DNA of 20,335 nt from a virus (Duplodnaviria > Heunggongvirae > Uroviricota > Caudoviricetes). Below the pieces are notes generated by a model that made no database searches, had not been told where the DNA came from, and was given only the letters and a program-made list of their open reading frames with translations. Shown in pieces: positions 3,003 through 20,335 of this stretch; position 1 is the first letter of the stretch, and every line of letters begins with the position of its first letter. The position numbers and the translations under genes are program-made. The stretch lies in the IMG/VR virus record IMGVR_UViG_2698536518_000010. One strand, 5' to 3'.

Positions 3003-3033
3003 GGTTTACACCTTAGGAAATCTTAATATCGCA

Positions 3034-3241: not shown

Positions 3242-3244
3242 CCG

Positions 3245-3769: not shown

Positions 3770-3868
3770 GTAACTCACCTCATGCATATACGATAAAAAA
3801 TAATTTCATGCGAAAAGGGAATGCGTTGTGGGTATGGAGGAAAGGGGCAATAACCGCCCCTTACTGAT

Positions 3869-4868: not shown

Positions 4869-4887
4869 CTAATCCCCCCCGTTGAAC

Positions 4888-4920
4888 ATTAATATATAAA
4901 AGCCCCTTACTAAGGGGCTT
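4888..4920 (-). terminator. Rho-independent terminator after the lipoprotein gene
   Basis: 8-bp stem AGCCCCTT/AAGGGGCT (4901-4908 and 4913-4920) with 4-nt loop, followed on the minus strand by a U/A-rich tract (TTATATATT). Confidence 0.5.
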
Positions 4921-4932
4921 TGCACGGATTGT

Positions 4933-6075
4933 TTAAAGGGAACTTTTTTTCGCCCCTTCAATTTCTGCCTGACAAATTTCGTCATTTGTAAATGAGTACT
5001 GCAGATAGACATATCCCTGAGTGGAATTGTTCGCTCTGGCCTCAATAGAGATAGTATCGATATTGTTTTTTAATGGTATTTCTTTTGTTCCCTTCCATGT
5101 GGCAGATAAGAAGCGTTCTTTTTTGTTTAGCCCCCTCATCCAGTCCTGAGGATCTTTCCAAATTGAACCAGCCAGCAAAAAGTCTGTAGTATCAGCCTTT
5201 CCATACAGAGAACTTAAAGAATTACTCAATTCTTCAAACTTGGATTTAAGAGCCAATCCATAGCTATCAGTATCAATATTTTTTCCTAAAGCCCGTATTT
5301 GACATAAACCAGCTTTCGGGGAGATCAGCAAACCATACATTTCAAAATCTGCGTTTTGCTTCGGTAATTTATCAGAAGTATACAGATTCACACTGTCTGG
5401 TAGTGGCTTGAGCTTAGCACCGATCATATCTTCGATGTTTTTCTGTGTAAGACCGGCTTCTAAGCCAAACGGACCATCCGCTGGCGGGAGTAAAGGAAGT
5501 TGCTCTTGGGAATTTTTGGCTGTTACTTCCGTTTCAGTACTGTTTTTTGCGTCATTAGCTTGTACTGATGCCAGCTTAACTTCAGCGAGGCCATACTTGG
5601 CTGTGAGGTACTTTTGCTGCAACATTGCCATGGTCTGCTCTTCAGTGGCAACAGTAGATAATTTTAGTACCTTTATCAGACCACCACTATACTGACGAGC
5701 ATCAGCTTTGGCTTCGTTGATTTTTGCATCTAAGCTGTCAATTTCAGTTTTAATTGAAGCCGCAAGCTCAGGATCAGGTTTTACTCCAGATACAACAACA
5801 TCAATTTTGGCACCTGATTCAATAGCATTAATACGCTGTTCCAAAAGCGCTTTATTAGTTCCTAATATTTCCAGTCTTGCTGTTGTCAGATTTTTTATCA
5901 ACCCACCAGAAAACTGCTGGTCAACTTCCTTAGCTGCTGATATTTCACCTTCCGTTTGCGACAGTTCAGCTTTAAGAGCCGCTACTTCCTGTTTCTGTTC
6001 TGGAGTTAACTCTTCTGGCCCACATCCGGTTAACATTACTATACCGACTAATGTTGCAATTAAAGTTTTATTCAT
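4933..6075 (-). CDS. Lipoprotein (380 aa) with internal repeat motif, function unknown
   Basis: N-terminal signal peptide with lipobox LTGC (MNKTLIATLVGIVMLTGC). Two copies of an xSGGLIKxL-containing segment. Coiled-coil-like composition. Confidence 0.8.
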   Translation of the reverse strand: MNKTLIATLVGIVMLTGCGPEELTPEQKQEVAALKAELSQTEGEISAAKEVDQQFSGGLIKNLTTARLEILGTNKALLEQRINAIESGAKIDVVVSGVKPDPELAASIKTEIDSLDAKINEAKADARQYSGGLIKVLKLSTVATEEQTMAMLQQKYLTAKYGLAEVKLASVQANDAKNSTETEVTAKNSQEQLPLLPPADGPFGLEAGLTQKNIEDMIGAKLKPLPDSVNLYTSDKLPKQNADFEMYGLLISPKAGLCQIRALGKNIDTDSYGLALKSKFEELSNSLSSLYGKADTTDFLLAGSIWKDPQDWMRGLNKKERFLSATWKGTKEIPLKNNIDTISIEARANNSTQGYVYLQYSFTNDEICQAEIEGAKKSSL

Positions 6076-6209
6076 ATCCCTATTCCAAATGAAAATATTC
6101 AGATTAATCTTATCAGGAACCCAGATGCAATTGAATATTCATCTGCTCAGCAACGTAGTAGATTTCCTCAGAAAGCATCAACAAAAAACCAAGAGAATCC
6201 CATCCTCTG

Positions 6210-6497
6210 TTACTGACTACAATTGTTCTTTTTTTGGTATTTCCTGAATGCCTCACCATTGGGCTGATGTAATCCCATCCCGGCATGTGCCCGGCTGATG
6301 GTTTCGCGCATCTCCCCGAAATTATCCTGCCTTGCTGGTGGGCATGCTGCCTTGTGGATACATTCCGCGCGACGTTTTGCCGCCTGTTCCCGTGCCTTGT
6401 CATCATTCGCCAGCATGATGACCTCAGCCCACCGCGCCGCCGCTCTCCGGTACAGACCACGCGCTTCCAGTGCTTCCGCTTTGCTGTCGTGAATCAT
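6210..6497 (-). CDS. PerC-family-like transcriptional regulator (95 aa)
   Basis: Motif KAEALEARGLYRRAAARWAEV resembles the conserved PerC/Pch core as I recall it. 4-nt overlap with the upstream ProQ-like gene. Confidence 0.5.
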   Translation of the reverse strand: MIHDSKAEALEARGLYRRAAARWAEVIMLANDDKAREQAAKRRAECIHKAACPPARQDNFGEMRETISRAHAGMGLHQPNGEAFRKYQKKNNCSQ

Positions 6498-7036
6498 GCG
6501 CCTATTGTCTCCTTTGCTGCCCGGCGCTGGCGTTTGCGCTTCTCATTCAGCGCCACCAGCCGCGTTTCTGCGTCCTGTTGTTCCTGTGGTGTCACCTCGC
6601 CGCACGGCTGGCCTTTCAGGTCGTAGCGTACCCCACCAGCCATTAAGGCGCGGTAATAGCGCGGACACTGCGCATAAGATGCCAGCGTCGCACGCAATGC
6701 CCCTGGCCCGAATGCCAGCCCCCTGACGGCGAGATCCTGCATCAGGTCGTCGAATATCCCCACCTTAAGCGGCTTCAGTGCTTCCCGGCTGAATAAGTCA
6801 GGCCACAACTCAGTGAGGCGGTTAACGCGCCTGCGGTTTTTGCGCTGGCGTTTGGTCATATGCCGCCACGGTGTCGCCCCTGTAGGCTTCTGCTGCGCTT
6901 TCTGGTTACCGGGCATCACTTTATGCGCCGATGTGGTTTTATCCTGCTCCTGTGCCGCCTGCGTCGTTTTCTGTGGCGTGCCGTAAATACCTTTTGGTTT
7001 TCTGTTAATGGTCAGCTTAGTCATGCTTTGCCCCAT
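6494..7036 (-). CDS. ProQ/FinO-domain RNA-binding protein
   Basis: Segment LTELWPDLFSREALKPLKVGIFDDLMQDL...YYRALMAGGVRYDLKGQPCGEVTPQEQQDAETRL aligns by eye with the E. coli ProQ N-terminal FinO-like domain (LAERFPHCF...PLKIGIFQDL...RVDLDGNPCGEL). Likely true start is ATG at 7024 (GGGG upstream). Confidence 0.8.
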   Translation of the reverse strand: MGQSMTKLTINRKPKGIYGTPQKTTQAAQEQDKTTSAHKVMPGNQKAQQKPTGATPWRHMTKRQRKNRRRVNRLTELWPDLFSREALKPLKVGIFDDLMQDLAVRGLAFGPGALRATLASYAQCPRYYRALMAGGVRYDLKGQPCGEVTPQEQQDAETRLVALNEKRKRQRRAAKETIGA

Positions 7037-7045
7037 CGTTACAAC

Positions 7046-7380
7046 TGTCTACCAACTGTCTACCGATATAATTGATTGATTTATTTAATGTTATTAACAC
7101 ATAACAAAAAAACAATCTGCAAACTGTCTACCAACGGTCTACCGCATTAATACATTGATAATTAATGATTTTTACTAAATGGTAGACAGTGTAGACAGTT
7201 AAAAGAGAAATTTAAAAAATACCCCCTTAACTATCTGTTTTTTATATACCCCCCGTGGTTTAGGAATATAGAAATAACTGTCTACCTCTCTACCACATTG
7301 AAAATATCTTTATAATTCAAAATATTAATTGGTAGATGGTTGGTAGAGGGTTAAGTGAATCTGTCTACCAACCGTCTACC
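7046..7380. repeat. Iteron-type origin-like region: at least 8 direct copies of (T/G/C)GTCTACC and 4 inverted copies (GGTAGA) separated by AT-rich spacers
   Basis: Direct octamers at 7046-7053, 7057-7064, 7125-7132, 7136-7143, 7279-7286, 7287-7294, 7362-7369, 7373-7380. Inverted copies at 7181-7188, 7190-7197, 7331-7336, 7342-7347. Lies immediately 3' of the primase/helicase gene. Confidence 0.75.
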
Positions 7381-7407
7381 TTTACGTTTCAGCTTATAAA
7401 TTTCGTA

Positions 7408-9213
7408 TTATGTTCTGTCGTTAATCCCTGTAGCTGCTGGCAACCAGCCATCAGCATCATCATCTAACAGAACATTTGTTATCACTCGCCCTTTATCCGG
7501 GCCTTTAGTGCATTTAGCCCGCTTATACTCCTTTCCGTATTCCGCCATAGCTCCTGGCATATCAGTACCAAAGCGTGTCAGTGATACTGGTTTTCCCAGG
7601 CCATGCGCTGACATATAGGCTAAATAAGCATGATACAGGTATCGCCTCGGGCTAAATGGCACTATTTCCGCATTGCCCACCATCATTCCTTCACATTTAA
7701 CCAACGACATCAGATAGCCGCAAAAGTCCACCAGTGAATCACCTTCGCGCTTTATCAACAGCGCTTCTTCTGATTTTTGCTGCTCATAAAGTAGTCTTTT
7801 AGCTTCGTCCTGGTCGGTAAATCGTGTTAGCAAATGGCGAATCACTACCGCCAGTTCGCCTTCTATCTTTTCCGCCAGCATGGGATCGCGTTCGTTCTCC
7901 GGTACGACCTCAGAGAAATTAAATATCACCCTACGACGCGAGATCCCCCCGCTTCGGTCACTGAATGACATGGCGTTATTGTTTACCGCAAGCACTACTG
8001 CCGGAATACGTGTGGAGTAGGGGGCTTTATGTTTCGGATCAATTGCCACCTTGTCGCCGCCAGTAATTGCCTTAATTCCTGCACCATCGCCAGCGTAGCG
8101 AGTCATATCCGGCATGATAATCAGCGAAAAGCCAACTACTAACGCGCGTTCCCTTGCGTCTTCCAGAGCCTTCATGCTTGCCGATACTGTGTTGGCCTTA
8201 CCCGCCAGCATGGTACAAATCTCCGCCATCACACTTTTACCGCTTCCGCCCGGCCCCGTTACCTCAAGGAATAACTGCCAGTCGTACCGGTTCGCCAGTA
8301 CCATGAATAATGCCGCCAGTACGCGATCCGCTTTACGAGCATTATCCGCCACCGAACGACGCAACCACTTCCAGAAATTCGGCGCATGTGTTGCCAGCGT
8401 TTCCCCCTCTTCTGGCGGGCTGAACGGTAATTCACTGGCATTTAACAACCAGTCATTTTTGTTGTGTTCCCGAAAATTTCCTGTCCTGATATCAAAAACA
8501 CCGTTACTGAACCCAATAAGATTTCTGTCCGCTCCCCCCATAACAGGTAGACTCAATTTCATTGTCTCTACGGCAAATTTAATGGCGTTTTGCGAATAAC
8601 TAATTTCGGCATCAATAAAAATCTTCGCCATAGACCGCTGGAGTTCCTTATCAGATACAGGCTCCCAAACAATTCCGTTGTAATGGTGAACTACATCAGA
8701 ATCATCATTTATCGCCAGTGCTCCTCCATAATGTTCAAGTAACACTTCCCCTCTCTGGCTGGCTCCCATCTGATTTAATGCAGGCTTGGGTAGACCACTA
8801 TTTTTTGTAGCTAATTTCATCACTGAAACTTCCCCGTGCTCAGCCTGTTCGCGGATCCGTTGCAGGTAGTCGCGCCAGTTCTCCGGTTCCTGGTCGGTGA
8901 TACCTTTGTATAATTTCGCCTCCTGTACGCCAGCCAGCGCCAGCTTTTCAGCGATAGTATTGATCTGGATTGGCTCTATCTCCCCCGCGATATAGACACG
9001 CGCAAAACGGCGTTTCTCGTCAATAATGCGGATATTCGCCAGGTCTGCCAGTTGCTTTGGCCCCAGGTAAACAGGAGGCACGTTATCGCCGTGTTTTCGT
9101 CCTTCACTTTCAATCCAGTGTTGAGCATGGGCGTAAGCATCCGTCCCGGCAAAAATGATTACCTCAGTGAATTTATCCTTCGGCTGATATTTTAGACTCG
9201 GTGCGTTTTTCAC
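7408..9213 (-). CDS. Replicative primase/helicase, P4 alpha-like (SF3 helicase P-loop GPGGSGKS)
   Basis: 601-aa ORF. Walker A VTGPGGSGKSV and Walker B-like LIIMPDM. Start overlaps upstream gene (ATGA). Followed by the iteron region. Confidence 0.85.
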   Translation of the reverse strand: MKNAPSLKYQPKDKFTEVIIFAGTDAYAHAQHWIESEGRKHGDNVPPVYLGPKQLADLANIRIIDEKRRFARVYIAGEIEPIQINTIAEKLALAGVQEAKLYKGITDQEPENWRDYLQRIREQAEHGEVSVMKLATKNSGLPKPALNQMGASQRGEVLLEHYGGALAINDDSDVVHHYNGIVWEPVSDKELQRSMAKIFIDAEISYSQNAIKFAVETMKLSLPVMGGADRNLIGFSNGVFDIRTGNFREHNKNDWLLNASELPFSPPEEGETLATHAPNFWKWLRRSVADNARKADRVLAALFMVLANRYDWQLFLEVTGPGGSGKSVMAEICTMLAGKANTVSASMKALEDARERALVVGFSLIIMPDMTRYAGDGAGIKAITGGDKVAIDPKHKAPYSTRIPAVVLAVNNNAMSFSDRSGGISRRRVIFNFSEVVPENERDPMLAEKIEGELAVVIRHLLTRFTDQDEAKRLLYEQQKSEEALLIKREGDSLVDFCGYLMSLVKCEGMMVGNAEIVPFSPRRYLYHAYLAYMSAHGLGKPVSLTRFGTDMPGAMAEYGKEYKRAKCTKGPDKGRVITNVLLDDDADGWLPAATGINDRT

Positions 9214-9500
9214 TTCTTACCTCCCGCAACCAACATTGCCCGGATTTTTTTAATATTCGTGGCTGCACGTCTCGCCACTGCCTGTTGTTTGTTTTCCACC
9301 AGAATAAAATCACGATCAAACTGACGGCGCGGCATTACGCAGTCATATTCGTAAGCCTCACGGCGGTAGGTGATATTGCCTGGCGTAACGTGACGAATAA
9401 CCACCCGTCCCCCGCGTCTGGTGTCCCGGGAAATATCACCGGGGCGGATTTCAGGCCGAGAGAGGCCGCTGGCAGTAAAGCCAGAATTTTTCTTTTTCAT
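9210..9500 (-). CDS. Hypothetical basic protein (96 aa) in the replication operon
   Basis: ORF whose stop overlaps the primase start. No recognisable domain. Confidence 0.5.
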   Translation of the reverse strand: MKKKNSGFTASGLSRPEIRPGDISRDTRRGGRVVIRHVTPGNITYRREAYEYDCVMPRRQFDRDFILVENKQQAVARRAATNIKKIRAMLVAGGKK

Positions 9501-9504
9501 GGTT

Positions 9505-9705
9505 TTATTTTCCTGTCAGCAGTTCCGGTTTTATTTCCGCACGAATACAAAGTTCAGAAAAAAATTCAGGAGAACCAACAATCTCATTACTTTTCAGTCG
9601 GCATTGTGATTTCACTTTCCCTTTATCCAGGTAAACCAGTACGCGTCCGGTGAAATCATCTGGCACATTAAGCACTACGGGTACATGCGCTTCATGATTA
9701 TGCAT
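9505..9705 (-). CDS. Hypothetical protein (66 aa), short paralogue of the 9924-10289 gene
   Basis: GGAGGA Shine-Dalgarno. N-terminus MHNH...DDFTGRVLV parallels MHNL...EKFTGQLLV of the larger gene. Confidence 0.5.
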   Translation of the reverse strand: MHNHEAHVPVVLNVPDDFTGRVLVYLDKGKVKSQCRLKSNEIVGSPEFFSELCIRAEIKPELLTGK

Positions 9706-9931
9706 GGCTTACATCCTCCGTGAATTTTCTTCTGTAACGCGTCTCTGCCACATATTCCGCATAGTCCGACGCAATACTAAGAATCATTTCACCCTCTGAC
9801 TTGTAGCCACTGGTATTGATAAGAAAATATGCAGCTTTCATCATGTCAGCAACGCTCAACAATGCGCCCGCTGCATCTTCCGGTGCGCCATCAAATTCCC
9901 GTTTCAGGGAATTAAAACGATCATCACGCAT
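9698..9931 (-). CDS. Hypothetical protein (77 aa)
   Basis: ORF overlapping neighbours by 8 nt at both ends (operon-style packing). Confidence 0.45.
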   Translation of the reverse strand: MRDDRFNSLKREFDGAPEDAAGALLSVADMMKAAYFLINTSGYKSEGEMILSIASDYAEYVAETRYRRKFTEDVSHA

Positions 9932-10289
9932 GTTTACCCCCCTGAATGACCTGATAACCGCAACTGGTCAGCAACTCGATAAATTCCGGCAGTGTGCCGA
10001 AACAGCAATCATCACGCAGCCGTTCGCGGGATACTTCAACGCCGTTTTCGTAGTGACTCACCATACGCCCGGTAAAATGCAGATCATCATCGTGATGGCT
10101 CGTTGACGGCTTAATCAGTCGCGCACGTTCCGCCAGTTCCAGCAATGCTTCAACGCTTCCGGCAATTGCACCATCCGGCAGGTGGTAATTACGCACTATG
10201 CGCCCGTTCTCCACATTGACCAGCAACTGCCCGGTAAATTTCTCGTCAAACTGAATGCTGTTAAGGTCAGAAATTGACAGGTTATGCAT
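9924..10289 (-). CDS. Hypothetical protein (121 aa from SD-supported ATG at 10289; ORF track start 10307)
   Basis: AGGAGGT Shine-Dalgarno 6 nt upstream of ATG at 10289. Paralogous N-terminus to the 9505-9705 product. Confidence 0.5.
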   Translation of the reverse strand: MHNLSISDLNSIQFDEKFTGQLLVNVENGRIVRNYHLPDGAIAGSVEALLELAERARLIKPSTSHHDDDLHFTGRMVSHYENGVEVSRERLRDDCCFGTLPEFIELLTSCGYQVIQGGKHA

Positions 10290-10506
10290 GGTGCACCTCC
10301 TGCACATCAGCCATGATAATTTTTCCGGCCTTATCCAGTGCCTGATCGGCTTTTAGCTGCACAAATGCTAAATAATGGGAGATGCATTCTGATTCTCTGG
10401 CTGCGTGTTTATGCGCCACACCAGCGATAGCAGAAATCTCAATAAGTGAATCCATCAGCGTTTTGATAGCGTCTACCGCTGCATCAGGCCATGTTGCATT
10501 ACACAT
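10282..10506 (-). CDS. Hypothetical protein (74 aa)
   Basis: ORF with ATGTGTAA start/stop overlap with the upstream 67-aa gene. Confidence 0.4.
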   Translation of the reverse strand: MCNATWPDAAVDAIKTLMDSLIEISAIAGVAHKHAARESECISHYLAFVQLKADQALDKAGKIIMADVQEVHHA

Positions 10507-10702
10507 GTTCCACCTCCTGGCGAATACGGGCTGCGAATACCATCACGCAGCCATCAGGAGATTGCTGGCGTGCTTCCTGTTCGCTGGTGGCCTCGATGTG
10601 AATTACGCGCGGTTGTGCCGTGCTCAGGGCGATAAAACGCCAGATGTATTTATTCAGGTTGTGCGAGTCCCGCCCTTGCGGGTGTGTGGTATGATTTCTC
10701 AT
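10499..10702 (-). CDS. Hypothetical protein (67 aa), first gene of the leftward operon
   Basis: C-terminal part of the 435-codon ORF-track frame. ATG at 10702 preceded by GAGGT Shine-Dalgarno. Lies just downstream of the operator cluster. Confidence 0.45.
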   Translation of the reverse strand: MRNHTTHPQGRDSHNLNKYIWRFIALSTAQPRVIHIEATSEQEARQQSPDGCVMVFAARIRQEVEHV

Positions 10703-10798
10703 AGCTACCTCGATACTCTTGCTATCGTTGGTGGTTAGACGCCCTGCATGTGTGCCACCACTGCGGGGCGTTGTCGTTTCTGCACCTTGCATCAACAA

Positions 10799-10853
10799 GG
10801 TGTTGAACACCAATTTAAGCCTAGGTGTTAAACACGTCAAGTGTTGAACACTT
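10799..10853. promoter_or_regulatory. Three copies of an 11-bp perfect palindrome GTGTT(G/A)AACAC (10800-10810, 10825-10835, 10841-10851); candidate operator cluster in a divergent promoter region
   Basis: Read directly. Third copy overlaps a TTGAAC -35-like hexamer with CATACT 17 bp downstream. Sits between the leftward operon and the rightward small RHH gene. Confidence 0.6.
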
Positions 10854-10901
10854 ATTTTTTTTCCTGCATACTGCATTTGTTTTTTGTAAGGGGTACACAA
10901 C

Positions 10902-11081
10902 ATGGCGACAAAAGCAGTAAACGCAAAATCACAAACAGTTGCGGCAAGGGTTCCGCATGAAGTTATGAACAATGTTGAGGCGGTAAAAATGCCTGGTGAA
11001 AGTACAGGGCAGTTTGTAACAGCAGCATTAAAGCGAGAAGTTGAATACCGCCAGCGCCGCAAGGCCAAAGAACAGGAGTAA
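10902..11081 (+). CDS. Ribbon-helix-helix (Arc/CopG-like) small DNA-binding protein, 59 aa (below ORF-track cutoff)
   Basis: ATG at 10902 with AAGGGG upstream. Translation MATKAVNAKSQTVAARVPHEVMNNVEAVKMPGESTGQFVTAALKREVEYRQRRKAKEQE fits a beta-strand/helix/helix pattern. Confidence 0.45.
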   Translation: MATKAVNAKSQTVAARVPHEVMNNVEAVKMPGESTGQFVTAALKREVEYRQRRKAKEQE

Positions 11082-11798
11082 CCATCACCAGCGCCGTGGT
11101 GTGAGGAACTACGGTGCATCGTTTTACAGGGCTGCGCCATGACCAACAAAGAATCAACCAATACACCATCACCGGCACGGAAAAGACAGCGCAGAAAGAT
11201 AGCGTACGAGCATGAGTCAAACAGATTCGCGCCCTGTGCGTTTATCCTTGAGAAATTCCTTAAAGAGTACAGGCGCACAAAAATGGGGTCGCATACCTGG
11301 AAAACATCGCGGCATGGCAATGTTAAAGAGCAGGAATAGCCCACCAGCAAGCCAGCATATTCACCATAATGACCCTCAGTTAAACATAGAGTCATTGGTG
11401 CAAAGCTGACACATTGCCCACCAGCCGCAAATCTGGCATTGTTGGCGATGCGTTCAAGTATGTAGCTTTCCCACTGGCGGCCCTCTGCGGTCGCCTTTGT
11501 TTTATCCAGAACGAAATCAGACATCAGATTGATCAGCACCTGGCGACCTGACAAAATCGCATCAGTCGCGCCACCAGCAAAATTTTTTGCTTTCCGGACA
11601 GTGTGACCAACGACATTTTGCAGCAAAATATTCTGCATTTCTGGCGTGCTGTAGTAACGGTGATCAGCGCCTTCACTCTGTGCGACCACAACGCTATAAT
11701 CTGCCTCGTAGACAGTAAGCAATATGGCGCAGTAGGCTATTCGTTCACAAAGGCGCTCCGGCAACGGGGCGCTTTCTCTTTTTGTAACGGTCAGAGCG

Positions 11799-12599
11799 TT
11801 ACACATGGCTGTTTTCCTCCATGCGACGGGCTAACCAACGCTGCGAAAGACGAATTAATTCAGCCTTCCGCTGGTGGTAGTCCTGGCCTAACTCAATCAG
11901 CGTGATATTGCTCTGCTCAAGGTAAGAAAGGTGCTCAAGCTGCAACGTGCTCATGTGGTCGCGTGGTTCGCCTGTAATGCCGTTCGCCAGTGCCCACTGT
12001 TTTGCAGTCATGCCACCCAGTACGATACGCGCCAGCATGTTCGCTTCCGTGGTGTAGTGGTGCTGGAGTGTGTTTTTACCCAGTTCAGCCCGGTACGCCT
12101 CCAGCGCGGCACACATTGGCTTAAAGTAGCTGGCAACTGTGATACGGGCTTTCAGTTCCCGGCGTAACGCTGCGGAACGAACAGGCGCAACCTTGTGTAG
12201 CTCCTCCTCGCATTTGATAAAGTACTGGCGAACGGCGCGGCCCTGTTCGGTACGTTCGACCATCGCCAGTTCTTTCGCCATGTTCACTGTGATGATGTAC
12301 TCAAGAGCGGTTTGCTGGCGAGATTTTGCGCTCACCGGATCGGGTCGGCTCAAATATTCAACAACCTCATAATCCACGCCTTCCGTGAACCCGTATTCTT
12401 CAATGCGCCCCTTGATCCACGAACGGAAAACGCGCCCTACACCTAACGCCTTATGTAACGCTCTGGCGCTAACAATAGTGGTTTCACTCCCGCCAATAAC
12501 GCCGGAAATAATCGGGATAATTTCGCCGAAATTTTGCAGATTCTGGTTTTCAGGCCGAACGAAGCCCCGCCCCTGTACGGGCGTTTTTGGAAATTTCAT
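11799..12599 (-). CDS. Phage antirepressor-like protein (ANT/KilAC-type motif)
   Basis: 266-aa ORF. Segment ITVNMAKELAMVERTEQGRAVRQYFI resembles the conserved antirepressor core as I recall it. Confidence 0.6.
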   Translation of the reverse strand: MKFPKTPVQGRGFVRPENQNLQNFGEIIPIISGVIGGSETTIVSARALHKALGVGRVFRSWIKGRIEEYGFTEGVDYEVVEYLSRPDPVSAKSRQQTALEYIITVNMAKELAMVERTEQGRAVRQYFIKCEEELHKVAPVRSAALRRELKARITVASYFKPMCAALEAYRAELGKNTLQHHYTTEANMLARIVLGGMTAKQWALANGITGEPRDHMSTLQLEHLSYLEQSNITLIELGQDYHQRKAELIRLSQRWLARRMEENSHV

Positions 12600-12676
12600 A
12601 AAAACTCCTGCTATCGAATTAAGTTACTTTTATTTGCTGGTGGATAGCTGGGGGAAATAGCCCCGTAGCCATTTAA

Positions 12677-12874
12677 TCAGGTAGCTGTTCCGCGTGATTC
12701 CGCAATACGCTGATTAATCCACTCGTCAATTTCACTCTCAACGAAAGCAATAGCTCGCGAGCCAATTTTAACTGATGCAGGAAATTTACCTTGCCCCATA
12801 AGGCGATAAATCCATGCCTTGCTATATCCAGTTCTACGCTGAACTTCTGTTAAACGAATAAGCGTATTTGACAT
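12677..12874 (-). CDS. alpA: AlpA/Vis-family transcriptional regulator / excisionase-like protein
   Basis: 65-aa ORF MSNTLIRLTEVQRRTGYSKAWIYRLMGQGKFPASVKIGSRAIAFVESEIDEWI, typical AlpA-type HTH. Located two genes from the integrase. Confidence 0.85.
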   Translation of the reverse strand: MSNTLIRLTEVQRRTGYSKAWIYRLMGQGKFPASVKIGSRAIAFVESEIDEWINQRIAESRGTAT

Positions 12875-12943
12875 ATATTTACCTCATAACGTCTACTCAA
12901 TTTGACGAGGTAATCCTGGCACAGAAATAACGAATATTTTCAT

Positions 12944-13086
12944 ACCCTCAGGCCTAATGGTTACCGGAAGGAAATTAACCCTAAGGGTGATGGTAATCGG
13001 GAGGAAATCTACCCTAAGGGTGATGGTAAAATTGACGGGGAAGATAAAAAAATACCCTCAGGGTAACAGTAAATCACCCTCAGGGT
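12944..13086. promoter_or_regulatory. Repeated palindrome ACCCT(A/C)AGGGT (12978-12988, 13011-13021, 13054-13064, 13076-13086, plus half-site near 12944-12952) upstream of alpA
   Basis: Read directly. First two copies are followed by GATGGTAA. Lies between the stop of the 267-aa gene and the alpA start. Confidence 0.55.
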
Positions 13087-13101
13087 ATGCGGTATGGTGC
13101 G

Positions 13102-13905
13102 TTAATCCGGCTTTGCGTTCTTTTGGCTGTTGTCTCGGTTAATAGGGCAGGCAGTCCTCTCTATGAGCGTTGCAAGTGCATTACTTGCCCCCCACTGCTT
13201 AAGCTCCCTGGTTATCGCTTCTTGATTTCCCCTAGTGGCAAAATCATTTTCTGGATCGTAATTGGCCCACTCTCTGTTTCTAATCTCAATAGCCTTAGCT
13301 AATGGGTCTTTATCCCAGTATTTATATAAGTGTATCGGGCGCTCTTGCTCTAACTGCTCTATCCTTGCCCTTAACTCTGCGTTTTCTTTTTCCAGCATTG
13401 CGATTTGGGATAATAAATCATCCTCTGTACGCAACTCTTTCTTTTCAATATCGCGTCCTTGTGCCTCGTCATTTTCAGAAGAGTTAGCGCCTTCCAGCTT
13501 CGTTAACGCGTCAAGGACATCGGGAAAAATTGCGAAAATTTCACCCCTTATAAATCCAATGTTCTCAAATTCGGGATCTTCCCAATAACCGGACACCAGA
13601 AAACCATTTTCATCCCTCTCACCAGGTAAACAACCACGTTTCCGAACCGCATTCAGATTTCTATAAAGAACATCATAATCAAATTCATCCCGATACGGGT
13701 TACAAAAAGATTCCAACAGCTTAAATTCATTTACTGTGTACAGGCGGATATGTTCTCCGCTTATTCTCCTGAGTATCCAAGTTATGACATCTGAAACATC
13801 ATAATCATCACCAGCGACCTTAAGCACGACCTCAAGAAATTCACGTAAAGAAATAAAATCTTTTTTGTATTCGTTTAATTCGGCATGAATATCAATCATA
13901 CGCAC
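13102..13905 (-). CDS. Hypothetical 267-aa protein with coiled-coil segment, between integrase and alpA
   Basis: ORF with heptad-like stretch LLSQIAMLEKENAELRARIEQLEQE. AT-richer than neighbours. No recognisable catalytic motif. Confidence 0.65.
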   Translation of the reverse strand: MRMIDIHAELNEYKKDFISLREFLEVVLKVAGDDYDVSDVITWILRRISGEHIRLYTVNEFKLLESFCNPYRDEFDYDVLYRNLNAVRKRGCLPGERDENGFLVSGYWEDPEFENIGFIRGEIFAIFPDVLDALTKLEGANSSENDEAQGRDIEKKELRTEDDLLSQIAMLEKENAELRARIEQLEQERPIHLYKYWDKDPLAKAIEIRNREWANYDPENDFATRGNQEAITRELKQWGASNALATLIERTACPINRDNSQKNAKPD

Positions 13906-14027
13906 ACCTCAGCGTCCTCTACTGTAGTGGCTGTACCAGTCCGTCGAGGTGTACGGATTTTCGGGAGCGACCCTAGACACAGCCTTTTCTTTCGTCGCTC
14001 AAAGTCTACTACTGTATACGCAACCAG

Positions 14028-15242
14028 TCATCCACATTTTCCGAACTTGCCATGCACCACGTTACCGCCATGTTCGAGCGAATCCATATAGTCGGCGTAC
14101 CACTGGAGCATCTCGCGCCGCCCGTCCAGATATTGCGCATGATTGTACGTGCCACGAATTGAGTTCTTATCAACGTGTGCAAGCTGCGTTTCTATCCACG
14201 CGGTGTTATAGCCCTGCTCATGTAAAATCGTGCTCATGGTGTGCCGGAATCCATGACCAGTAACCTTTCCGTTATAGCCGATGCGTTTAAATACTTGGTT
14301 TATGCTAGCCTCGCTCATTGTTTTCCTTGGATCATTACGGCCGGGAAACATAAGCGGATAATTACCAGTTAATTCTTTAATCTGCCCAATAAGAGAAAGA
14401 GCCTGCTTAGACAAAGGCACCACATGAGGGCGACGCATTTTCATCCGTGAAGCAGGTATCTCCCAGATAGCCTTGTTGAGATCGATTTCATCCCATAATG
14501 CACCGCGCAGTTCGCCAGTTCGCAAACCAGTGATAATCAGTAGACGAGCCGCCATAACAACCAATGCACTTCCTGAGTAACTGGACAATGCCTTGAAAAA
14601 ATCAGGCAATTCTTTGGCTGTGAGGAAAGGATAATGATTAGATTCATGGCCTTGCATCGCGCTAGTAAGATCTGGGGCAGGGTTATACTCTGCGCGACCA
14701 GTGACTATTGCATAGCGGAAAACTTCCCCGCACCGCTGCCTCACTTTTTTGGCTTTTTCTGTAGCACCGCGCCCCTCGATGCGTCGCAGCACATTCAGAA
14801 GTTCAAGTGGTTTGATTTCGGCGATTGGTTTTTTGCCAATGTAAGGGAACACATCTTTGTTGAAGGCTTCGAGGATATCTGAAGCATAACCAGCAGACCA
14901 TTTTTTTAATTTGCTGCTGTGCCACTCAAGGGCAATATCTTTGAAGGTATTGTTTAACTGCGTTTCCCGGGCAATCTTTTCCTCTCGTTTCGCTTCCATC
15001 GGATCGATACCCCCAGCGATACCCCTTTTAGCTTCTTCACGTTTTGCACGAGCATCAGCCAAGGTAACTTCAGGATACACACCTAGTGCTAACAGCTTCT
15101 CTTTACCAGCTACACGATATTTAAAGCGCCAGTATTTTCCTCCACTAGGTTTTACCAGGAGATACAGACCACCACCATCAGCCAGCTTGTAAGCCTTCTC
15201 TTTTGGCTTGGCAGTGTCTATTTGACGGGCATTGAGTTTCAC
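14028..15242 (-). CDS. int: Tyrosine recombinase, P4-type integrase
   Basis: 404-aa ORF with GTG start preceded by GGAGGT. Catalytic signature residues (RTGELR, HGFRHT, SIRGTYNHAQY). Adjacent to the tRNA 3' fragment. Confidence 0.9.
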   Translation of the reverse strand: MKLNARQIDTAKPKEKAYKLADGGGLYLLVKPSGGKYWRFKYRVAGKEKLLALGVYPEVTLADARAKREEAKRGIAGGIDPMEAKREEKIARETQLNNTFKDIALEWHSSKLKKWSAGYASDILEAFNKDVFPYIGKKPIAEIKPLELLNVLRRIEGRGATEKAKKVRQRCGEVFRYAIVTGRAEYNPAPDLTSAMQGHESNHYPFLTAKELPDFFKALSSYSGSALVVMAARLLIITGLRTGELRGALWDEIDLNKAIWEIPASRMKMRRPHVVPLSKQALSLIGQIKELTGNYPLMFPGRNDPRKTMSEASINQVFKRIGYNGKVTGHGFRHTMSTILHEQGYNTAWIETQLAHVDKNSIRGTYNHAQYLDGRREMLQWYADYMDSLEHGGNVVHGKFGKCG

Positions 15243-15408: not shown

Positions 15409-15454
15409 TGGTGCCGATAATAGGAGTCGAACCTACGACCTTCGCATTACGAAT
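15409..15454 (-). tRNA. 3' fragment (about 46 nt, anticodon loop to CCA) of tRNA-Thr(CGU); att core repeat, not a complete tRNA
   Basis: Minus strand reads ATTCGTAATGCGAAGGTCGTAGGTTCGACTCCTATTATCGGCACCA. The 5' half (acceptor and D arms) is absent, since the upstream sequence cannot pair with the TATCGGC acceptor strand. Confidence 0.6.
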
Positions 15455-15811
15455 TATAAGAATCCGCTTCTAATTCAAAGTATTACCCCATCAACACTGC
15501 GCTCACACGTCCCACCACATCAAAACATGTAAAGCCTTGCAAGCCATTGTGAGGCCTTATGTGTCTCAGTTTTGTCCCACCTTGTATTATGACTTGCATA
15601 GCCAATGAAGATAAAGGTGACGACAAACAGCGCAGCAGTCTTCTTTTCTTTCACACTTTCCCCAATCAGCATACATAGCAGTCCTAGAGACAGTGGCGTA
15701 AAGTCATGGATGATCGGTGGAAGGAGGCGCTAATCCTTTCATACAAAAAATATGTAAAATCAATAACGGCTGTAAATCATTCAATACTCGCCCTATCGGA
15801 AGTTCACCAGC

Positions 15812-15852
15812 CAACCGCAGCACGTTCTTGCATACGACGTGGCTGCGGTTTC
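15812..15852. repeat. About 40-bp imperfect-hairpin element, copy A (homologous to 19744-19786)
   Basis: AACCGCAGCACGTTCTTGCATACGACGTGGCTGCGGTTTCA versus AACCGCAGCACGATCTTCTTGCATACGACGTGCTACGGTTTCA. Contains inverted arms GCAGCACG/CGTGGCTGC. Confidence 0.6.
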
Positions 15853-16000
15853 AACTCCCGCCAGCTCCACCAATCATGATTGGACGGTGTAAGGACAACA
15901 CCAACAAAAACAGGAAGTTAGCAGTCTCAGCAGGACACCGACCAGACGGTGAGGAGACAAAAAAGGATACGCAAAGGAGCCGCGGCTCCCGAGTGACACA

Positions 16001-16030
16001 AAAGCCCGCTTATGCGGGCTTTTTGTTTTT
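16001..16030 (+). terminator. Rho-independent terminator (plus strand)
   Basis: Stem AAAGCCCGC/GCGGGCTTT with TTAT loop followed by TTGTTTTT. A second palindrome GGAGCCGCGGCTCC lies at 15976-15990. Confidence 0.6.
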
Positions 16031-16106
16031 CCCTTAAGTTCCTAGCCGCTTATCTATAACTATGGAAAAATGTTAACCCTGACTGTATGCTAACAAAGGG
16101 ATGTAT

Positions 16107-17315
16107 ATGTCGGTTTTTCATAACTGGCTGCTTGATATCGCAAGCGGGAATTACTTTATCTACATCAAACGCCTTTCTGCAAACGACACTGGCGCAACAG
16201 GTGGCCATCAGGTCGGACTTTATATCCCCTCAAATATCGTTGAAAAGCTTTTTCCATCTATCAATCATACTCGCGAACTGAACCCTTCAGTCTTCCTTAC
16301 TGCGCATGTATCATCCCATGATTGCCCTGATACCCAAGCACGCGCAATTTATTACAACAACCGTTATTTTGGTAAGACCCGAAACGAAAAAAGAATTACG
16401 CGCTGGGGGAGAGGAAGTCCATTACAGAACCCTGAAAATACAGGAGCTCTCACAATTCTTGCTTTCAGGTTAAACGAACAGAACACTGACTGTTCCGAGG
16501 TAGATATATGGGTCTGCGTCAATCCCGATGAAGAGGATATCATCGAGTCTGCTATTGGCGAAATCATACCTGGAACCCTAATTTCCGGCCCTGCCGGACA
16601 AATTTTGGGCGGATTATCTCTTCAGCAAACTCCAGTAAATCATAAATATGTTATTCCTGAAGACTGGAAGAAGCGTTTTCCTTCTGGAAACGAAATTATT
16701 CAATATGCTGCTGGCCATTATGCTAAAAACTCCAAGGATCCAGATGAGCAACTGATTGACCGTCGGCGTGTCGAGTATGATATTTTTCTACTCGTCGAGG
16801 AATTACATGTTCTTGATATTATTAAGAAAGGATTCGATTCTGTAGATGAGTTTATTGCATTAGCCAACTCTGTCAGTAATCGACGTAAATCAAGGGCAGG
16901 CAAATCACTTGAACTTCACCTAGAGAAGCTTTTTATCGAGCACGGACTACGGCATTTCTCCACTCAGGCAGTTACTGAAGGTAATAAAAAACCAGATTTC
17001 CTGTTTCCTTCAGCAGAGGCATATCATAACGTTGAATTTCCTGTAGAAAACTTACGTATGCTGGCAGTAAAGACCACCTGCAAAGATCGCTGGCGTCAGA
17101 TACTGAATGAAGCAGATAAAATCCATCAGGTACATTTATTTACACTGCAAGAAGGTGTTTCTTCAGCACAATACCGAGAAATGAAAGATGCGGGTGTCAG
17201 ACTCGTTGTACCATCAACTTTACATAAAAAATACCCAGAAGCAGTTAGAGAAGAATTAATAACGCTCGGAGCATTCATTACTGAGCTGATAGAGCTTTAC
17301 GCTGAACTATCATAG
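16107..17315 (+). CDS. Type II restriction endonuclease, EcoRII family (expected CCWGG specificity)
   Basis: Protein closely resembles EcoRII as I recall it across its length (MSVFHNWLLDI..., RLSANDTGATGGHQVGLYIP, ...KTTCKDRWRQILNEADKIHQVHLFTLQEG). AAAGGG Shine-Dalgarno supports the ATG at 16107 over the ORF-track 16101. Confidence 0.85.
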   Translation: MSVFHNWLLDIASGNYFIYIKRLSANDTGATGGHQVGLYIPSNIVEKLFPSINHTRELNPSVFLTAHVSSHDCPDTQARAIYYNNRYFGKTRNEKRITRWGRGSPLQNPENTGALTILAFRLNEQNTDCSEVDIWVCVNPDEEDIIESAIGEIIPGTLISGPAGQILGGLSLQQTPVNHKYVIPEDWKKRFPSGNEIIQYAAGHYAKNSKDPDEQLIDRRRVEYDIFLLVEELHVLDIIKKGFDSVDEFIALANSVSNRRKSRAGKSLELHLEKLFIEHGLRHFSTQAVTEGNKKPDFLFPSAEAYHNVEFPVENLRMLAVKTTCKDRWRQILNEADKIHQVHLFTLQEGVSSAQYREMKDAGVRLVVPSTLHKKYPEAVREELITLGAFITELIELYAELS

Positions 17316-17320
17316 GCTGA

Positions 17321-17343
17321 CTCCCGGCTTAAAAGGCCGGGAG
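17321..17343. terminator. Hairpin between the convergent R and M genes (CTCCCGGC-TTAAAAG-GCCGGGAG)
   Basis: Perfect 8-bp stem read directly. No flanking U-tract, so terminator function is inferred only from position. Confidence 0.4.
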
Positions 17344-17349
17344 GTGTTC

Positions 17350-18783
17350 TCAAGGCTGCCCAGTCTTACCAGCATCAGCAGAAACAGCTTTGAGGATATA
17401 GGGTTCCAGAAGTCTGGCAACAGCTTCAAATACTGGCACCACAACTGAGTTACCGAACTGCCGATATGACTGAGTATCTGAAACCGGAATACGGAATGGT
17501 TTCCCTCCAGGTTTTTCAAATCCCATAAGGCGTGCGCACTCTCGGGGAGTCAGCCTGCGTGGTCGACGAGCCTGATTACTCTCATTCATAAAGTCAGCCT
17601 CTCCCGTTGCCATATCCCAACCACGATCAATAAGAATTTCTGATCCGTCTTTGTGATATCTGGCAGAAAGTGTGCGTGCAATGCTTTCCTTATTCTCAGG
17701 ATTGACCAACCCAAAGCCAAAACCATTCCCCTTGGCTGCATGCTTTTTGGCGTAGTTATAAAGGTACTCCCATAGTTTTGGCGTAAGTATATATTTACTG
17801 TCGACTACAGGCTCCAGCAATTCACCAAATGATGGGCGGTGTTCCGGATAAAAACGACTGATATCACGCAAGGTAAACCCCTTGTGAATATTCAGATCTC
17901 GTCTAAATCCGACCAGAACAATGCGTTCACGATGCTGAGGCAAAAAATGCTTCCCATCGATAATCTTTGGATCGTTTTTTCCCATTTCTGCAGCATCGGC
18001 AACTTCGTAGCCCAGCTCGTCAAGGGTCTCCATAATGACTTTGAAAGTTTTACCCTTATCATGGCTCTTCAGATTTTTGACATTTTCCAGCACAAAAATT
18101 GCCGGTTTTTTTGCTCGTATAATACGTGCCACGTCAAAAAAAAGTGTTCCTTGTGCTTCACATTCAAAACCATGCGCACGGCCAAGTGAGTTTTTCTTAC
18201 TAACACCAGCAAGACTAAATGGCTGGCACGGGAACCCCGCAAGAAGCACATCATGATCCGGCACATGCTCATCAATATATGCATAAGCATCCGTTTCCAA
18301 TACATCGGTTTTATCACTCAACGTGACTTCCCGAATATCGAGATTGAATTTATGCACCTGTTCATCGTTAAACCAGTTGGCCTTGTATGTACGCACAGCA
18401 TCTTTATTCCATTCACTGGTAAAAACACACTGGCCTCCAATAGCCTCAAAACCTTTTCGTATCCCTCCAATTCCAGCAAATAAGTCAATGAAGCGGAAAG
18501 CATATTCCGGATGGTTTGCAGGTGGTTCTGGTAGCATCTTACGCAGAAGAGACTCTTCTACTGACGTCAACGATTTTGGTAAACACTTGCCATTAATCCA
18601 GCGGTTAATGGTTTCACGGCTCCACTCATTTTTTCCGACTTTTCTCAGTAATTCAGCCACATACTTCTGATCATAGATTTCCAGCACTTTCTCGATAAGC
18701 TTTTTATCATTTTCCTGTCGCAGCTTTTCTTCCGCCTCGGCTTCCTTCAGCAGATGCTGTGCCAACACTTCAAATTCAGACAT
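17350..18783 (-). CDS. DNA cytosine-5 methyltransferase, Dcm/M.EcoRII family
   Basis: Motifs [10 protein letters not shown] (I), GFPCQPFS (IV), ENVKNL (VI), QFGNSV (X). High similarity by recollection to E. coli Dcm. GGAGG Shine-Dalgarno supports the ATG at 18783 (477 aa) over the ORF-track 18825. Confidence 0.9.
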
Positions 18784-19200
18784 AATTCCTCCAAGGGGTC
18801 TAATGGGTGAAACTCTATCACTCATTCAACCCAGAAGGAAATGTTTTGTCTGGATATTTAAACAGTGACTACAACGTAATCTAGCACTAGTGATGCTTTG
18901 TTAGGCATAGAGAATCATTCTATATACGACTAATGACAGAAAAACAGCAGACAAGTAGTTTGCTCATAAATTAACGCATACTACGTGCCTACGGTTTTCG
19001 AGACCGGTCCAATCATCAAACGAAACATAAAATTAATTCACACTATGAGGAAAAGTATCTTTTTTTACTATGTAAATTCAAAGGATTAGCCTCATTTACC
19101 CGATAGTTTTCTCAACACTACTGGTTGTGAGCCCTTGCAATGTTCATTAATATACGTCTCACAAATAATTCATAGATATTGCAAAATGGATATTACTGAG

Positions 19201-19518
19201 TTNNNNNNNNNNNNNNNNNNNNNNNNNNNNNNNNNNNNNNNNNNNNNNNNNNNNNNNNNNNNNNNNNNNNNNNNNNNNNNNNNNNNNNNNNNNNNNNNNN
19301 NNNNNNNNNNNNNNNNNNNNNNNNNNNNNNNNNNNNNNNNNNNNNNNNNNNNNNNNNNNNNNNNNNNNNNNNNNNNNNNNNNNNNNNNNNNNNNNNNNNN
19401 NNNNNNNNNNNNNNNNNNNNNNNNNNNNNNNNNNNNNNNNNNNNNNNNNNNNNNNNNNNNNNNNNNNNNNNNNNNNNNNNNNNNNNNNNNNNNNNNNNNN
19501 NNNNNNNNNNNNNNNNNN
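19201..19518. other. Run of 318 N (assembly gap or masked sequence)
   Basis: Read directly. ORF-track frames 19135-19536 and 19159-19524 are poly-X artefacts. Confidence 0.95.
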
Positions 19519-19723
<205 letters not shown>

Positions 19724-19743: not shown

Positions 19744-19786
19744 AACCGCAGCACGATCTTCTTGCATACGACGTGCTACGGTTTCA
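19744..19786. repeat. About 40-bp imperfect-hairpin element, copy B, abutting the invertase stop codon
   Basis: See copy A. Homology ends at the invertase stop codon (tca at 19784-19786). Confidence 0.6.
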
Positions 19787-20335
19787 TTTATCTCCGACCG
19801 GAAACTTCTTATACAGTGTCGATATACCAACATCATAGATGATCGCCACCTTCTGGCGAGGAACGCCTGATGCAATTAATCGTCCGGCCTGCTCCCATTG
19901 TTCTGGTGTAAGTTTGGGGCGACGTCCACCAATTCGTCCCTGTGCGCGAGCTGCTTCCAGTCCAGCTTTTGTTCGTTCAACAATCAGTTCACGCTCCATT
20001 TCAGCCAGGGCACCCATCACATGAAAGAAAAAGCGCCCCATTGGGGTACTGGTATCAATAGCATCCGTCAGGCTGCGAAAATTAACGCCACGTTCGCGCA
20101 ACTCCTCAACCAGAATGACCAGATGCCGCATACTGCGCCCCAGCCGATCCAGTTTCCAGACAACCAGAGTGTCACCTGCCGATAATGTCCTGAGCAGTTT
20201 TTTCAGTCCCGGCCTTTCGGACTTTGTACCGCTTATCTTGTCTTCAAAAATCAGCTCGCATCCTGCACAGTTCAGCGCATTACGTTGTAGATCTGTGTTC
20301 TGGTCATTTGTTGACACACGTACATAGCCAATAAG
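19784..20335 (-). CDS. pin: Serine recombinase, Hin/Gin/Pin-family DNA invertase (5' end cut by window edge; GTG at 20317 is internal)
   Basis: Frame stays open to the window edge and encodes LIGYVRVSTNDQ (catalytic Ser region) upstream of the ORF-track start. C-terminal HTH (VAIIYDVGISTLYKK). Strong recalled similarity to Gin/Pin. Confidence 0.88.
   Translation of the reverse strand, partial: LIGYVRVSTNDQNTDLQRNALNCAGCELIFEDKISGTKSERPGLKKLLRTLSAGDTLVVWKLDRLGRSMRHLVILVEELRERGVNFRSLTDAIDTSTPMGRFFFHVMGALAEMERELIVERTKAGLEAARAQGRIGGRRPKLTPEQWEQAGRLIASGVPRQKVAIIYDVGISTLYKKFPVGDK

Follow-up and report, generated by a model that had tools for sequence, protein, structure and literature searches.

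An intact EcoRII-type restriction-modification gene pair at the cargo-bearing end of a prophage within a thrW array

The window, i.e. the whole stretch of 20,335 nt which was analysed, contains two neighbouring genes that very probably constitute a functional EcoRII-like restriction-modification (R-M) pair of type IIE, which a prophage has at one of its ends as accessory cargo. The evidence comes from the integrity of the genes, their family membership, the functional residues of their products, and the layout, context and distribution of the module. The genes of the endonuclease (R) and the methyltransferase (M) are convergent and both intact (Table 1). As an earlier sequence-only reading had described, they are separated by a hairpin, which fills most of the 34 bp between the stop codons. 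The predicted centroid structure of the hairpin has an energy of -18.6 kcal/mol (z = -3.0), and one of 200 shuffled sequences folded as well. The outer 7 bp of its stem (CTCCCGG/CCGGGAG) are kept in the EcoRII module of the IncN plasmid. The terminator scan missed this hairpin because it lacks a T-run on either strand; it probably serves as a bidirectional terminator or as an mRNA stabiliser.

Table 1. Positions of the R-M module and of the neighbouring features in the window
Feature	Position	Strand	Basis or remark
int-alpA RNA in the satellite	13916-13983		sole Rfam match in the window
P4-type tyrosine integrase of the left-hand satellite	14028-15242	-	Pfam Arm-DNA-bind_3, Phage_int_M, Phage_integrase
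3' 46 nt of thrW tRNA-Thr(CGU), att core common to the satellite and the neighbouring prophage	15409-15454	-	exact match to intact thrW in L001
Relic ssrA-type attachment site	15845-16027	+	3'-terminal 28 nt of ssrA (15845-15872), followed by a 155-bp arm
Terminator inside the ssrA arm	16000-16023		terminator scan
Endonuclease upstream region	16028-16106	+	partly conserved with the IncN module
EcoRII-type restriction endonuclease gene	16107-17315	+	402 aa; Pfam, PDB match, 1NA6 alignment
Hairpin between the stop codons	17321-17343		10-bp stem, 3-nt loop
M.EcoRII/Dcm-type C5-cytosine DNA methyltransferase gene	17350-18783	-	477 aa; Pfam, NCBIfam, motifs
Methyltransferase upstream region, RBS and probable promoter/operator	18784-18865	-	IncN alignment
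Probable CMoRE/PD-T4-3 GIY-YIG type IV restriction endonuclease gene	19186-19723	+	visible ends match L001; N-masked at 19204-19519
Pin-type DNA invertase of the neighbouring prophage	19784-20335	-	Pfam Resolvase, HTH_7; start beyond the window end

The endonuclease combines on one chain an N-terminal effector DNA-binding domain and a C-terminal catalytic domain, and the Pfam families EcoRII-N (3.9e-61, residues 18-165) and EcoRII-C (2.4e-71, residues 229-393) were both recognised far above the cut-off. Crystallised EcoRII (PDB 1NA6) was matched over the full length (3e-243) with an identity of 86.1%, 56 positions being different. The functional residues were compared using the lists available for EcoRII, which cover catalysis, CC:GG recognition, the base pocket and the N-domain contacts (PMC2770665). 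The catalytic residues Glu271, Asp299, Lys324 and Glu337 are all kept, and so are the CC:GG readers Lys328, Asp329, Arg330 and Asn260 and the residues of the flipped-base pocket, Arg222, Glu225 and Tyr226. Moreover, Phe229, Arg265 and Ala266 lie outside the 56 differing positions, and the effector domain retains 13 of 13 contacts, including Asn28, His36, Gln37, Tyr85, Arg94, Glu96 and Arg98 as well as backbone contacts.

The methyltransferase was assigned to its family with similar clarity. Two Pfam domains, DNA_methylase (4.7e-78) and DNA_meth_N (7.1e-27), were found, and the NCBIfam model NF007772 (PRK10458) gave 927 bits, its cut-off being 710. The m5C motifs FAGIGG (I), GFPCQ (IV), ENV (VI), QHRER (VIII) and GNSV (X) are present, motif IV (PCQ) providing the catalytic cysteine. 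The protein is 90% identical to the M.EcoRII-type proteins P0007 and P0010 and to the IncN copy, and 67.7% identical to Dcm of K-12. The resemblance to EcoRII and Dcm/M.EcoRII, which had previously been proposed from the sequence, is thus borne out, and with both genes at full length and matches far beyond chance the module can be called complete. Inactivating changes in the catalytic motifs, named beforehand as grounds for refutation, were found in neither R nor M.

The identities of 86% and 90%, together with the conserved contact residues, point to CCWGG as the recognition sequence, and the predicted target of the methyltransferase is the inner cytosine of this site. EcoRII-C, PspGI and Ecl18kI closely resemble one another in their catalytic cores and base-flipping pockets (PMC2770665), and an enzyme of the EcoRII family with another specificity, e.g. 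CCNGG as in Ecl18kI and SsoII, might be considered on these grounds. However, the endonuclease matches Ecl18kI and PspGI at E values of about 1e-4, its N-domain keeps the readers of the central T:A pair (Asn28, Gln37, Tyr85 and Arg98), and the methyltransferase is related to M.EcoRII and Dcm, which are both CCWGG enzymes. Another specificity is therefore extremely improbable.

The suspicion that both open reading frames had been started too far upstream proved justified. The endonuclease frame was called at 16101-17315 (+), where an in-frame ATG at 16101 gives 404 aa and corresponds to the numbering of 1NA6; the start at 16107 is favoured by the AAGGG located 6 nt 5' of the ATG and by the RefSeq length of the matching genes in related strains (1209 bp, 402 aa). 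The identical 402-aa protein is annotated in these strains as WP_000110239.1. Similarly, the methyltransferase frame was called at 17350-18825 (-) with 491 aa, and the start at 18783 is favoured by a GGAGG 4 nt 5' of the ATG, by the RefSeq length of 1434 bp (477 aa) and by the closest homologues, the IncN protein included, most of which have 477 aa and the N-terminus MSEFE.

The region of about 82 bp 5' of the methyltransferase ATG aligns closely to the EcoRII module of the IncN plasmid, and the similarity ends there. In M.EcoRII a repressor domain is fused to the enzyme, and the protein acts as a repressor of its own gene (PMC12707154). The N-terminal domain used for this autorepression is present in the methyltransferase (DNA_meth_N), and by analogy an operator probably lies within the aligned region, through which the methyltransferase gene may be autorepressed. 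On the endonuclease side, a consensus scan of the upstream region recognised no convincing promoter, and a strong terminator is situated only about 80 bp 5' of the gene. These two observations, along with the near universality of dcm in E. coli, would suit the view of the two genes as a relic, silent or in decay, in which the methyltransferase is redundant with Dcm and the endonuclease is unexpressed or inactive. On the other hand, neither frame is shortened and none of the functional residues checked has been lost, both enzymes are annotated in all the carrier matches listed, and in six of eight related E. coli loci the proteins show no difference, a single M residue being changed in each of the other two. 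Such a relic is, in consequence, very unlikely.

For an active pair, specificity, activity and regulation are predicted from homology to EcoRII. Following the EcoRII literature, the methyltransferase would add a 5-methyl group to the inner cytosine of CCWGG sites in the host DNA, and its N-terminal domain would repress its own promoter. The endonuclease would be a dimer whose catalytic core stays blocked by the N-terminal effector domains as long as these have bound no further CCWGG site; the released enzyme would then flip out the central A/T pair and cut unmethylated CCWGG, as its 86% identity to EcoRII suggests. Incoming DNA with several unmethylated sites would be cut in this way, and DNA methylated by Dcm or M.EcoRII would be spared.

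The position of the module was resolved by comparison with related loci, in which the att sites were recognised as tRNA or tmRNA fragments; the window itself contains no complete tRNA or tmRNA gene according to ARAGORN. The module lies 652 bp to the right of a 46-nt thrW fragment, which abuts the satellite integrase. The claim that it stands just outside the att core of the island is correct as to this position; the flank, however, belongs to a second thrW element rather than to the core chromosome. In Z1323PEC0011 a cryptic prophage at thrW is bounded by 48-bp thrW repeats, with its own integrase beside the intact tRNA, and the module lies inside these repeats. Because the window ends at position 20335, it shows no more of the neighbouring prophage than the near att copy, CMoRE and pin; what follows, as well as the intact thrW, is known from the related strains. 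The homologue of the invertase is annotated in L001 as pinE, and genes for tail fibres and the baseplate come after it. Outside the satellite, the DNA represents the far cargo end of a second integrative element, which is placed in tandem at thrW. The combination of the satellite integrase, the thrW fragment and the endonuclease gene is rare: the junction was covered to at least 80% in only 3 complete E. coli genomes, at 96-97% identity, and in none of these is it accompanied by an intact integrase. A 51-nt junction specific to the window had no match in species-representative genomes, and one similar but non-identical IMG/VR contig (92-96% identity) was found.

Between the thrW fragment and the endonuclease gene a relic ssrA-type site is preserved. 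The homology to the ssrA-adjacent copies of the module begins exactly 28 nt before the tmRNA 3' end. In Ecol_AZ146 the ssrA core and arm occur at both ends of the ssrA prophage, and the order is ssrA, core and arm, R, M, CMoRE, a full lambdoid prophage, its integrase and the second core and arm. The usual home of the module is the ssrA-proximal end of prophages integrated at ssrA, which explains why a relic ssrA site accompanies it. In O157:H7 and other strains the slot of the module is filled by an AraC regulator; it is a variable place for prophage cargo, with the att end on one side and the CMoRE, pin and tail-fibre genes on the other. CMoRE remains with the pin and tail genes when AraC replaces R-M, and the right edge of the swapped segment is therefore located upstream of CMoRE, at about 18975-18990.

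The last observation also bears on the question whether R-M, with CMoRE, could be an integrase-less islet between ssrA-core repeats, moved in trans and not true phage cargo. Identical R and M genes stand beside Mu-like baseplate and tail genes, lambdoid tail genes and a P4-like satellite, L010 has a second, diverged core and arm directly after CMoRE, and in the window R-M-CMoRE is flanked on both sides by a 41-44-bp repeat (15813-15853 and 19744-19786), all of which would fit an islet. The association of CMoRE with the pin and tail genes in the absence of R-M argues against it, however, and the only second core and arm in Ecol_AZ146 is found past the prophage integrase, about 45 kb away. The repeat, which was considered as an att duplication, is mostly a terminator-like hairpin, and its right-hand copy is in most loci just a hairpin resembling the CMoRE terminator; it was retained as a minor rival only. 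An islet moved in trans is, on balance, distinctly unlikely, and prophage cargo is the preferred interpretation.

At a DNA identity of at least 99% the module is present in 262 of 5,426 complete E. coli genomes (about 5%), and the endonuclease/methyltransferase pair is annotated in all the carrier matches listed. Public assemblies contain the 402-aa endonuclease sequence in 10,426 indexed blocks; in the phage collection searched, no deposited phage genome carries the module. Among the proteins translated from eight related E. coli loci, those of six are identical to the window (for M, L006-L010 and L012, the last annotated as WP_001288444.1), and in L001 and in L005 the M protein deviates at a single residue. 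Such near-zero diversity is equally compatible with recent spread and with selection and is in itself no proof of function.

The dcm-vsr pair was found in 5,368 of the 5,426 genomes (98.9%), and therefore at least 204 of the 262 carriers are also dcm-positive. The redundancy of the methyltransferase in a dcm-positive host, which had been anticipated, thus stands, and for modules of this kind it is established knowledge (PMC3874152). This has consequences for the idea that the pair is mainly a selfish addiction module, with defence being secondary: after loss of the prophage end methylation would be lost and the endonuclease would kill the cell. Post-segregational killing by EcoRII is documented (PMC3874152), and the module lies at the very edge of mobile elements, by att sites. 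Dcm, though, has the same specificity and weakens the killing of hosts from which EcoRII has been lost (PMC3874152), so that, given the number of dcm-positive carriers, addiction should be weak in the actual hosts. We consider a mainly selfish role unlikely.

The gene next to the methyltransferase probably encodes a type IV enzyme. The visible ends of this CMoRE gene match L001 (23943-24716) at 99-100%, and the L001 orthologue was recognised as PD-T4-3 by PADLOC (2.4e-140) and matched PDB 9U75 (3.7e-172); in the window copy 316 positions are masked, and the two visible ends are out of frame with each other. The defence island which had been proposed beside the satellite is more precisely a prophage cargo slot that holds the R-M pair and the CMoRE gene. 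CMoRE cuts DNA containing hydroxymethylcytosine and neither binds nor cuts 5-methylcytosine DNA, and T-even phages evade restriction-modification via 5hmC/glucosyl-5hmC substitution (PMC12923530). It is conceivable, as a tentative suggestion, that the R-M pair and CMoRE form a complementary "cytosine-state" defence block, in which unmodified CCWGG would be the target of the EcoRII-type enzyme and the 5hmC/glucosyl-5hmC DNA of T-even phages that of CMoRE, with 5-methylcytosine serving as the mark of self. CMoRE adjoins the R-M pair in 239 of the 262 carrier genomes. Conservation of the two as a pair beyond E. coli was considered and rejected, a CMoRE match being found in 0 of 80 EcoRII-family loci of other species. 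The occurrence of CMoRE without the R-M pair in about 600 further genomes, and its absence from those 80 loci, speak against a co-evolved R-M-CMoRE unit.

EcoRII is among the best-studied restriction enzymes, annotations of the present allele already exist for hundreds of complete E. coli genomes, and the module is an intact, ordinary copy of this already known type; its value as a discovery is small. It has a modest value as a case of how R-M genes travel, with an att-proximal prophage end, a slot shared with AraC and a relic ssrA site brought into a thrW array. The module persists where the host Dcm supplies the protective methylation and the host Vsr the associated repair. Moreover, an R-M pair beside a type IV enzyme of opposite substrate preference is suited to work on layered defence.

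Compared with known systems, the module is most similar to the EcoRII system of IncN plasmids (1NA6, 3HQF, 3HQG; M.EcoRII). Both have a two-domain endonuclease and a methyltransferase with an N-terminal domain, and they share the convergent order, a spacer of 33-34 bp, the hairpin stem and the methyltransferase upstream region. All checked functional residues are identical, whereas 55 of 402 endonuclease and 46 of 477 methyltransferase residues differ and the DNA identity is about 80%. The module in the window is chromosomal and prophage-borne, in contrast to the plasmid-borne IncN module, and on the methyltransferase side its neighbour is CMoRE instead of an Mrr_cat nuclease gene. With E. coli Dcm the methyltransferase shares the PRK10458 subfamily, the motifs and probably the target, but its N-terminus is divergent. 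Dcm, moreover, has no partner endonuclease and its gene overlaps vsr, Dcm-Vsr being an orphan CCWGG methyltransferase with a mismatch-repair partner; no vsr homologue occurs anywhere in the window. PspGI (CCWGG) and Ecl18kI (CCNGG) share with the endonuclease a homologous catalytic domain and the base-flipping mechanism (PMC2770665), but these weakly matching enzymes are single-domain proteins without the N-terminal effector domain. Finally, the module resembles other defence cargo at prophage and satellite ends, as it occupies a variable slot by an att site, beside CMoRE and with AraC as the alternative elsewhere, and it departs from the usual prophage-end cargo only in that, on entering a thrW array, it brought along a relic ssrA attachment site.

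The convergent endonuclease (R) and m5C methyltransferase (M) genes with a hairpin between them, described in the sequence-only reading as a complete EcoRII-family restriction-modification (R-M) module, were confirmed as such, both genes being of intact length. Two long convergent ORFs were present in the window, 16101-17315 (+, 404 aa) and 17350-18825 (-, 491 aa). The centroid of the intergenic hairpin had an energy of -18.6 kcal/mol (z = -3.0), and equally good folding was obtained in one of 200 shuffles. As had been suspected, both ORF starts lie too far upstream. The ATG codons at 16107 and 18783 are better, with AAGGG 6 nt ahead of the former and GGAGG 4 nt ahead of the latter. RefSeq models of the matching genes encode 402 aa (R) and 477 aa (M), and the closest M homologues, the IncN plasmid protein among them, are mostly 477 aa long with an MSEFE start. 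Proteins translated from RefSeq-annotated loci were the same as those of the window, except for one M residue in strain Z1323PEC0011.

The R protein contains the Pfam domains EcoRII-N (3.9e-61) and EcoRII-C (2.4e-71) and matches the EcoRII crystal structure 1NA6 along its entire length (3e-243, 86.1% identity), whereas its match to Ecl18kI and PspGI is weak (~1e-4). Residues listed in the EcoRII domain-DNA structure paper (PMC2770665) were compared position by position in the alignment, and every one checked was kept: the active site (Glu271, Asp299, Lys324, Glu337), the residues reading CC:GG (Lys328, Asp329, Arg330, Asn260), the flipped-base pocket (Arg222, Glu225, Tyr226) and all 13 effector-domain contacts, including Asn28, Gln37, Tyr85 and Arg98, which in EcoRII read the central T:A pair (PMC2770665). 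The M protein, with the DNA_methylase and DNA_meth_N domains, scored 927 bits against the Dcm/M.EcoRII subfamily model PRK10458 (cut-off 710) and has motifs I, IV (PCQ), VI (ENV), VIII and X. It shares 90% identity with P0007/P0010 (M.EcoRII type) and with the product of the gene beside EcoRII on an IncN plasmid, and 67.7% with K-12 Dcm. The resemblance of both products to EcoRII and Dcm/M.EcoRII noted in the sequence-only reading holds.

Features of the window and of related loci (L004, L016, L017)
Feature	Position	Strand	Remarks
Satellite P4-type integrase	14028-15242		
int-alpA RNA	13916-13983		left island
3' 46 nt of tRNA-Thr thrW	15409-15454	-	adjoins satellite integrase
Last 28 nt of ssrA	15845-15872		followed by 155-bp arm; terminator at 16000-16023
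R-M intergenic hairpin	17321-17343		within 34-bp spacer; 10-bp stem, 3-nt loop
CMoRE/PD-T4-3 gene	19186-19723		middle masked, N-run 19204-19519
AraC-family regulator between thrW att end and CMoRE, instead of R-M	L004 8538-9281; L016 2630-3373; L017 2631-3374		O157:H7 and other strains

The module had been placed just outside the island att core, and this position is borne out by the thrW fragment, which abuts the satellite integrase with the module to its right; no complete tRNA gene was found anywhere in the window. In the close relative Z1323PEC0011, the genes after the same R-M pair are CMoRE, pinE, those for tail fibre and baseplate, regulatory genes and an integrase; the intact thrW comes next, beside proA, and both ends of the element carry a 48-bp thrW repeat. 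The module therefore lies at the distal end of a second element integrated at thrW, which forms a tandem with the satellite. The window's order of satellite integrase, thrW fragment, R-M, CMoRE and pin also occurs in the IMG/VR contig IMGVR_UViG_2778261274_000007 (92-96% identity). The window-specific junction had no match in species-representative genomes. The left island (2500-15242) encodes a P4-type integrase, a D5-type primase-helicase, an AntA antirepressor and a ProQ/FinO-like protein, and its far att copy lies outside the window. The low-GC end of the satellite (1-2420, 29-38% GC) encodes a 576-aa ORC/Cdc6-like ATPase with a zinc ribbon, running past the window edge, and a protein of 229 aa that matched no family; PADLOC gave no match for either, and both may be satellite defence cargo.

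The thrW arrangement of the window occurs in only 15 of 5,426 genomes. The usual order, shared by strain Ecol_AZ146 and five of the six loci recovered with an identical R, is smpB, ssrA, R, M and phage tail genes, with CMoRE between M and the tail genes in all of these except L007. Next in Ecol_AZ146 comes a full lambdoid prophage, ending in its integrase and a second copy of the ssrA core and arm (92% identity), which is the version adjoining ssrA in most E. coli. The module is interpreted as prophage cargo directly beside an ssrA-type attP, and window 15845-16027 is a relic of such an attP, carried along with the R-M genes into the thrW array. Similar core/arm pieces were observed at prophage cargo ends near yecD (L013) and after sitD (L014). 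An AraC regulator holds the R-M slot in other prophages at thrW, one of them in O157:H7; the exchanged segment spans ~15654-18988 in the window. A 41-44-bp direct repeat (15813-15853 and 19744-19786, ~89% identical), a hairpin resembling the CMoRE terminator, lies on both sides of R-M-CMoRE; in L010, a longer, diverged second core/arm copy occupies the right-hand position. Satellites beside the R-M module are also found elsewhere: in L008, a stretch without the ssrA gene, a P4-like satellite (1-9258; Psu, Ogr/Delta, AlpA, Ash, primase) adjoins the same R-M-CMoRE block, with the junction inside the 28-nt ssrA core.

The L001 orthologue of the neighbouring gene matches PADLOC PD-T4-3 (2.4e-140) and the CMoRE structure 9U75 (3.7e-172). 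The mask in the window gene comprises 316 N, compared with 552 nt at the same place in related loci, and the visible ends are one base out of frame, reflecting either a length-altering mask or a deletion in the window copy. CMoRE is a type IV enzyme degrading 5hmC and glucosyl-5hmC DNA, and it neither binds nor cuts 5mC or plain DNA (PMC12923530). It adjoins M in 239 of 262 carrier genomes, is present without R-M in roughly 600 further genomes, and was found in none of the best 80 EcoRII-family loci of other species (from 283 stretches). The pairing is a sensible combination, yet the two are probably co-cargo rather than a co-evolved unit.

An index of public assemblies has the exact 402-aa R in 10,426 blocks, and 262 of 5,426 complete E. 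coli genomes carry the 2.7-kb module with ≥99% identity; all carriers among the matches listed have the R/M pair annotated. Of eight related E. coli loci compared, six encode identical R and M, whereas L001 (Z1323PEC0011) and L005 each differ by one M residue. Members of the wider family were confirmed in 283 stretches from species-representative genomes. In 76 of the best 80 of these loci, an m5C methyltransferase gene lies within ~1.4 kb of R (all but one within ~750 bp), and in all closest relatives (R ≥73% identical) M is convergent and directly downstream. The dcm-vsr pair occurs in 5,368 of the 5,426 genomes, so that both methyltransferases must coexist in no fewer than 204 of the 262 carriers. 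Dcm is known to attenuate host killing following EcoRII loss (PMC3874152), and the proposed redundancy of M in a dcm-positive host is upheld. No vsr homologue was found in the window, and its close relatives likewise have none; vsr lies in or beside the module in 38 of the best 80 family loci of other species, those of Yersinia and Rouxiella, for instance, having it between R and M. For T:G repair, the window clade seems to depend on its host.

The module is a known system, already widely annotated; what is new in its surroundings is a modest case of prophages exchanging cargo and an R-M/CMoRE pairing that can be tested. R and M of the prototype, carried by the IncN plasmid pKPC-3714, are likewise convergent, with a spacer of 33 bp rather than 34 bp, and DNA similarity to the window is ~80% from 9 bp upstream of the R ORF to ~82 bp upstream of the M start. 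A gene for a Mrr_cat-domain nuclease that weakly matches models of type IV restriction enzymes lies ~600 bp upstream of the prototype M gene (7275-7922 in L003, the plasmid locus). M.EcoRII, to which a repressor domain is fused, represses its own gene, the R gene being unaffected (review, PMC12707154); by analogy, the window M would presumably do the same. The outer stem of the hairpin and the M upstream region are common to both modules.
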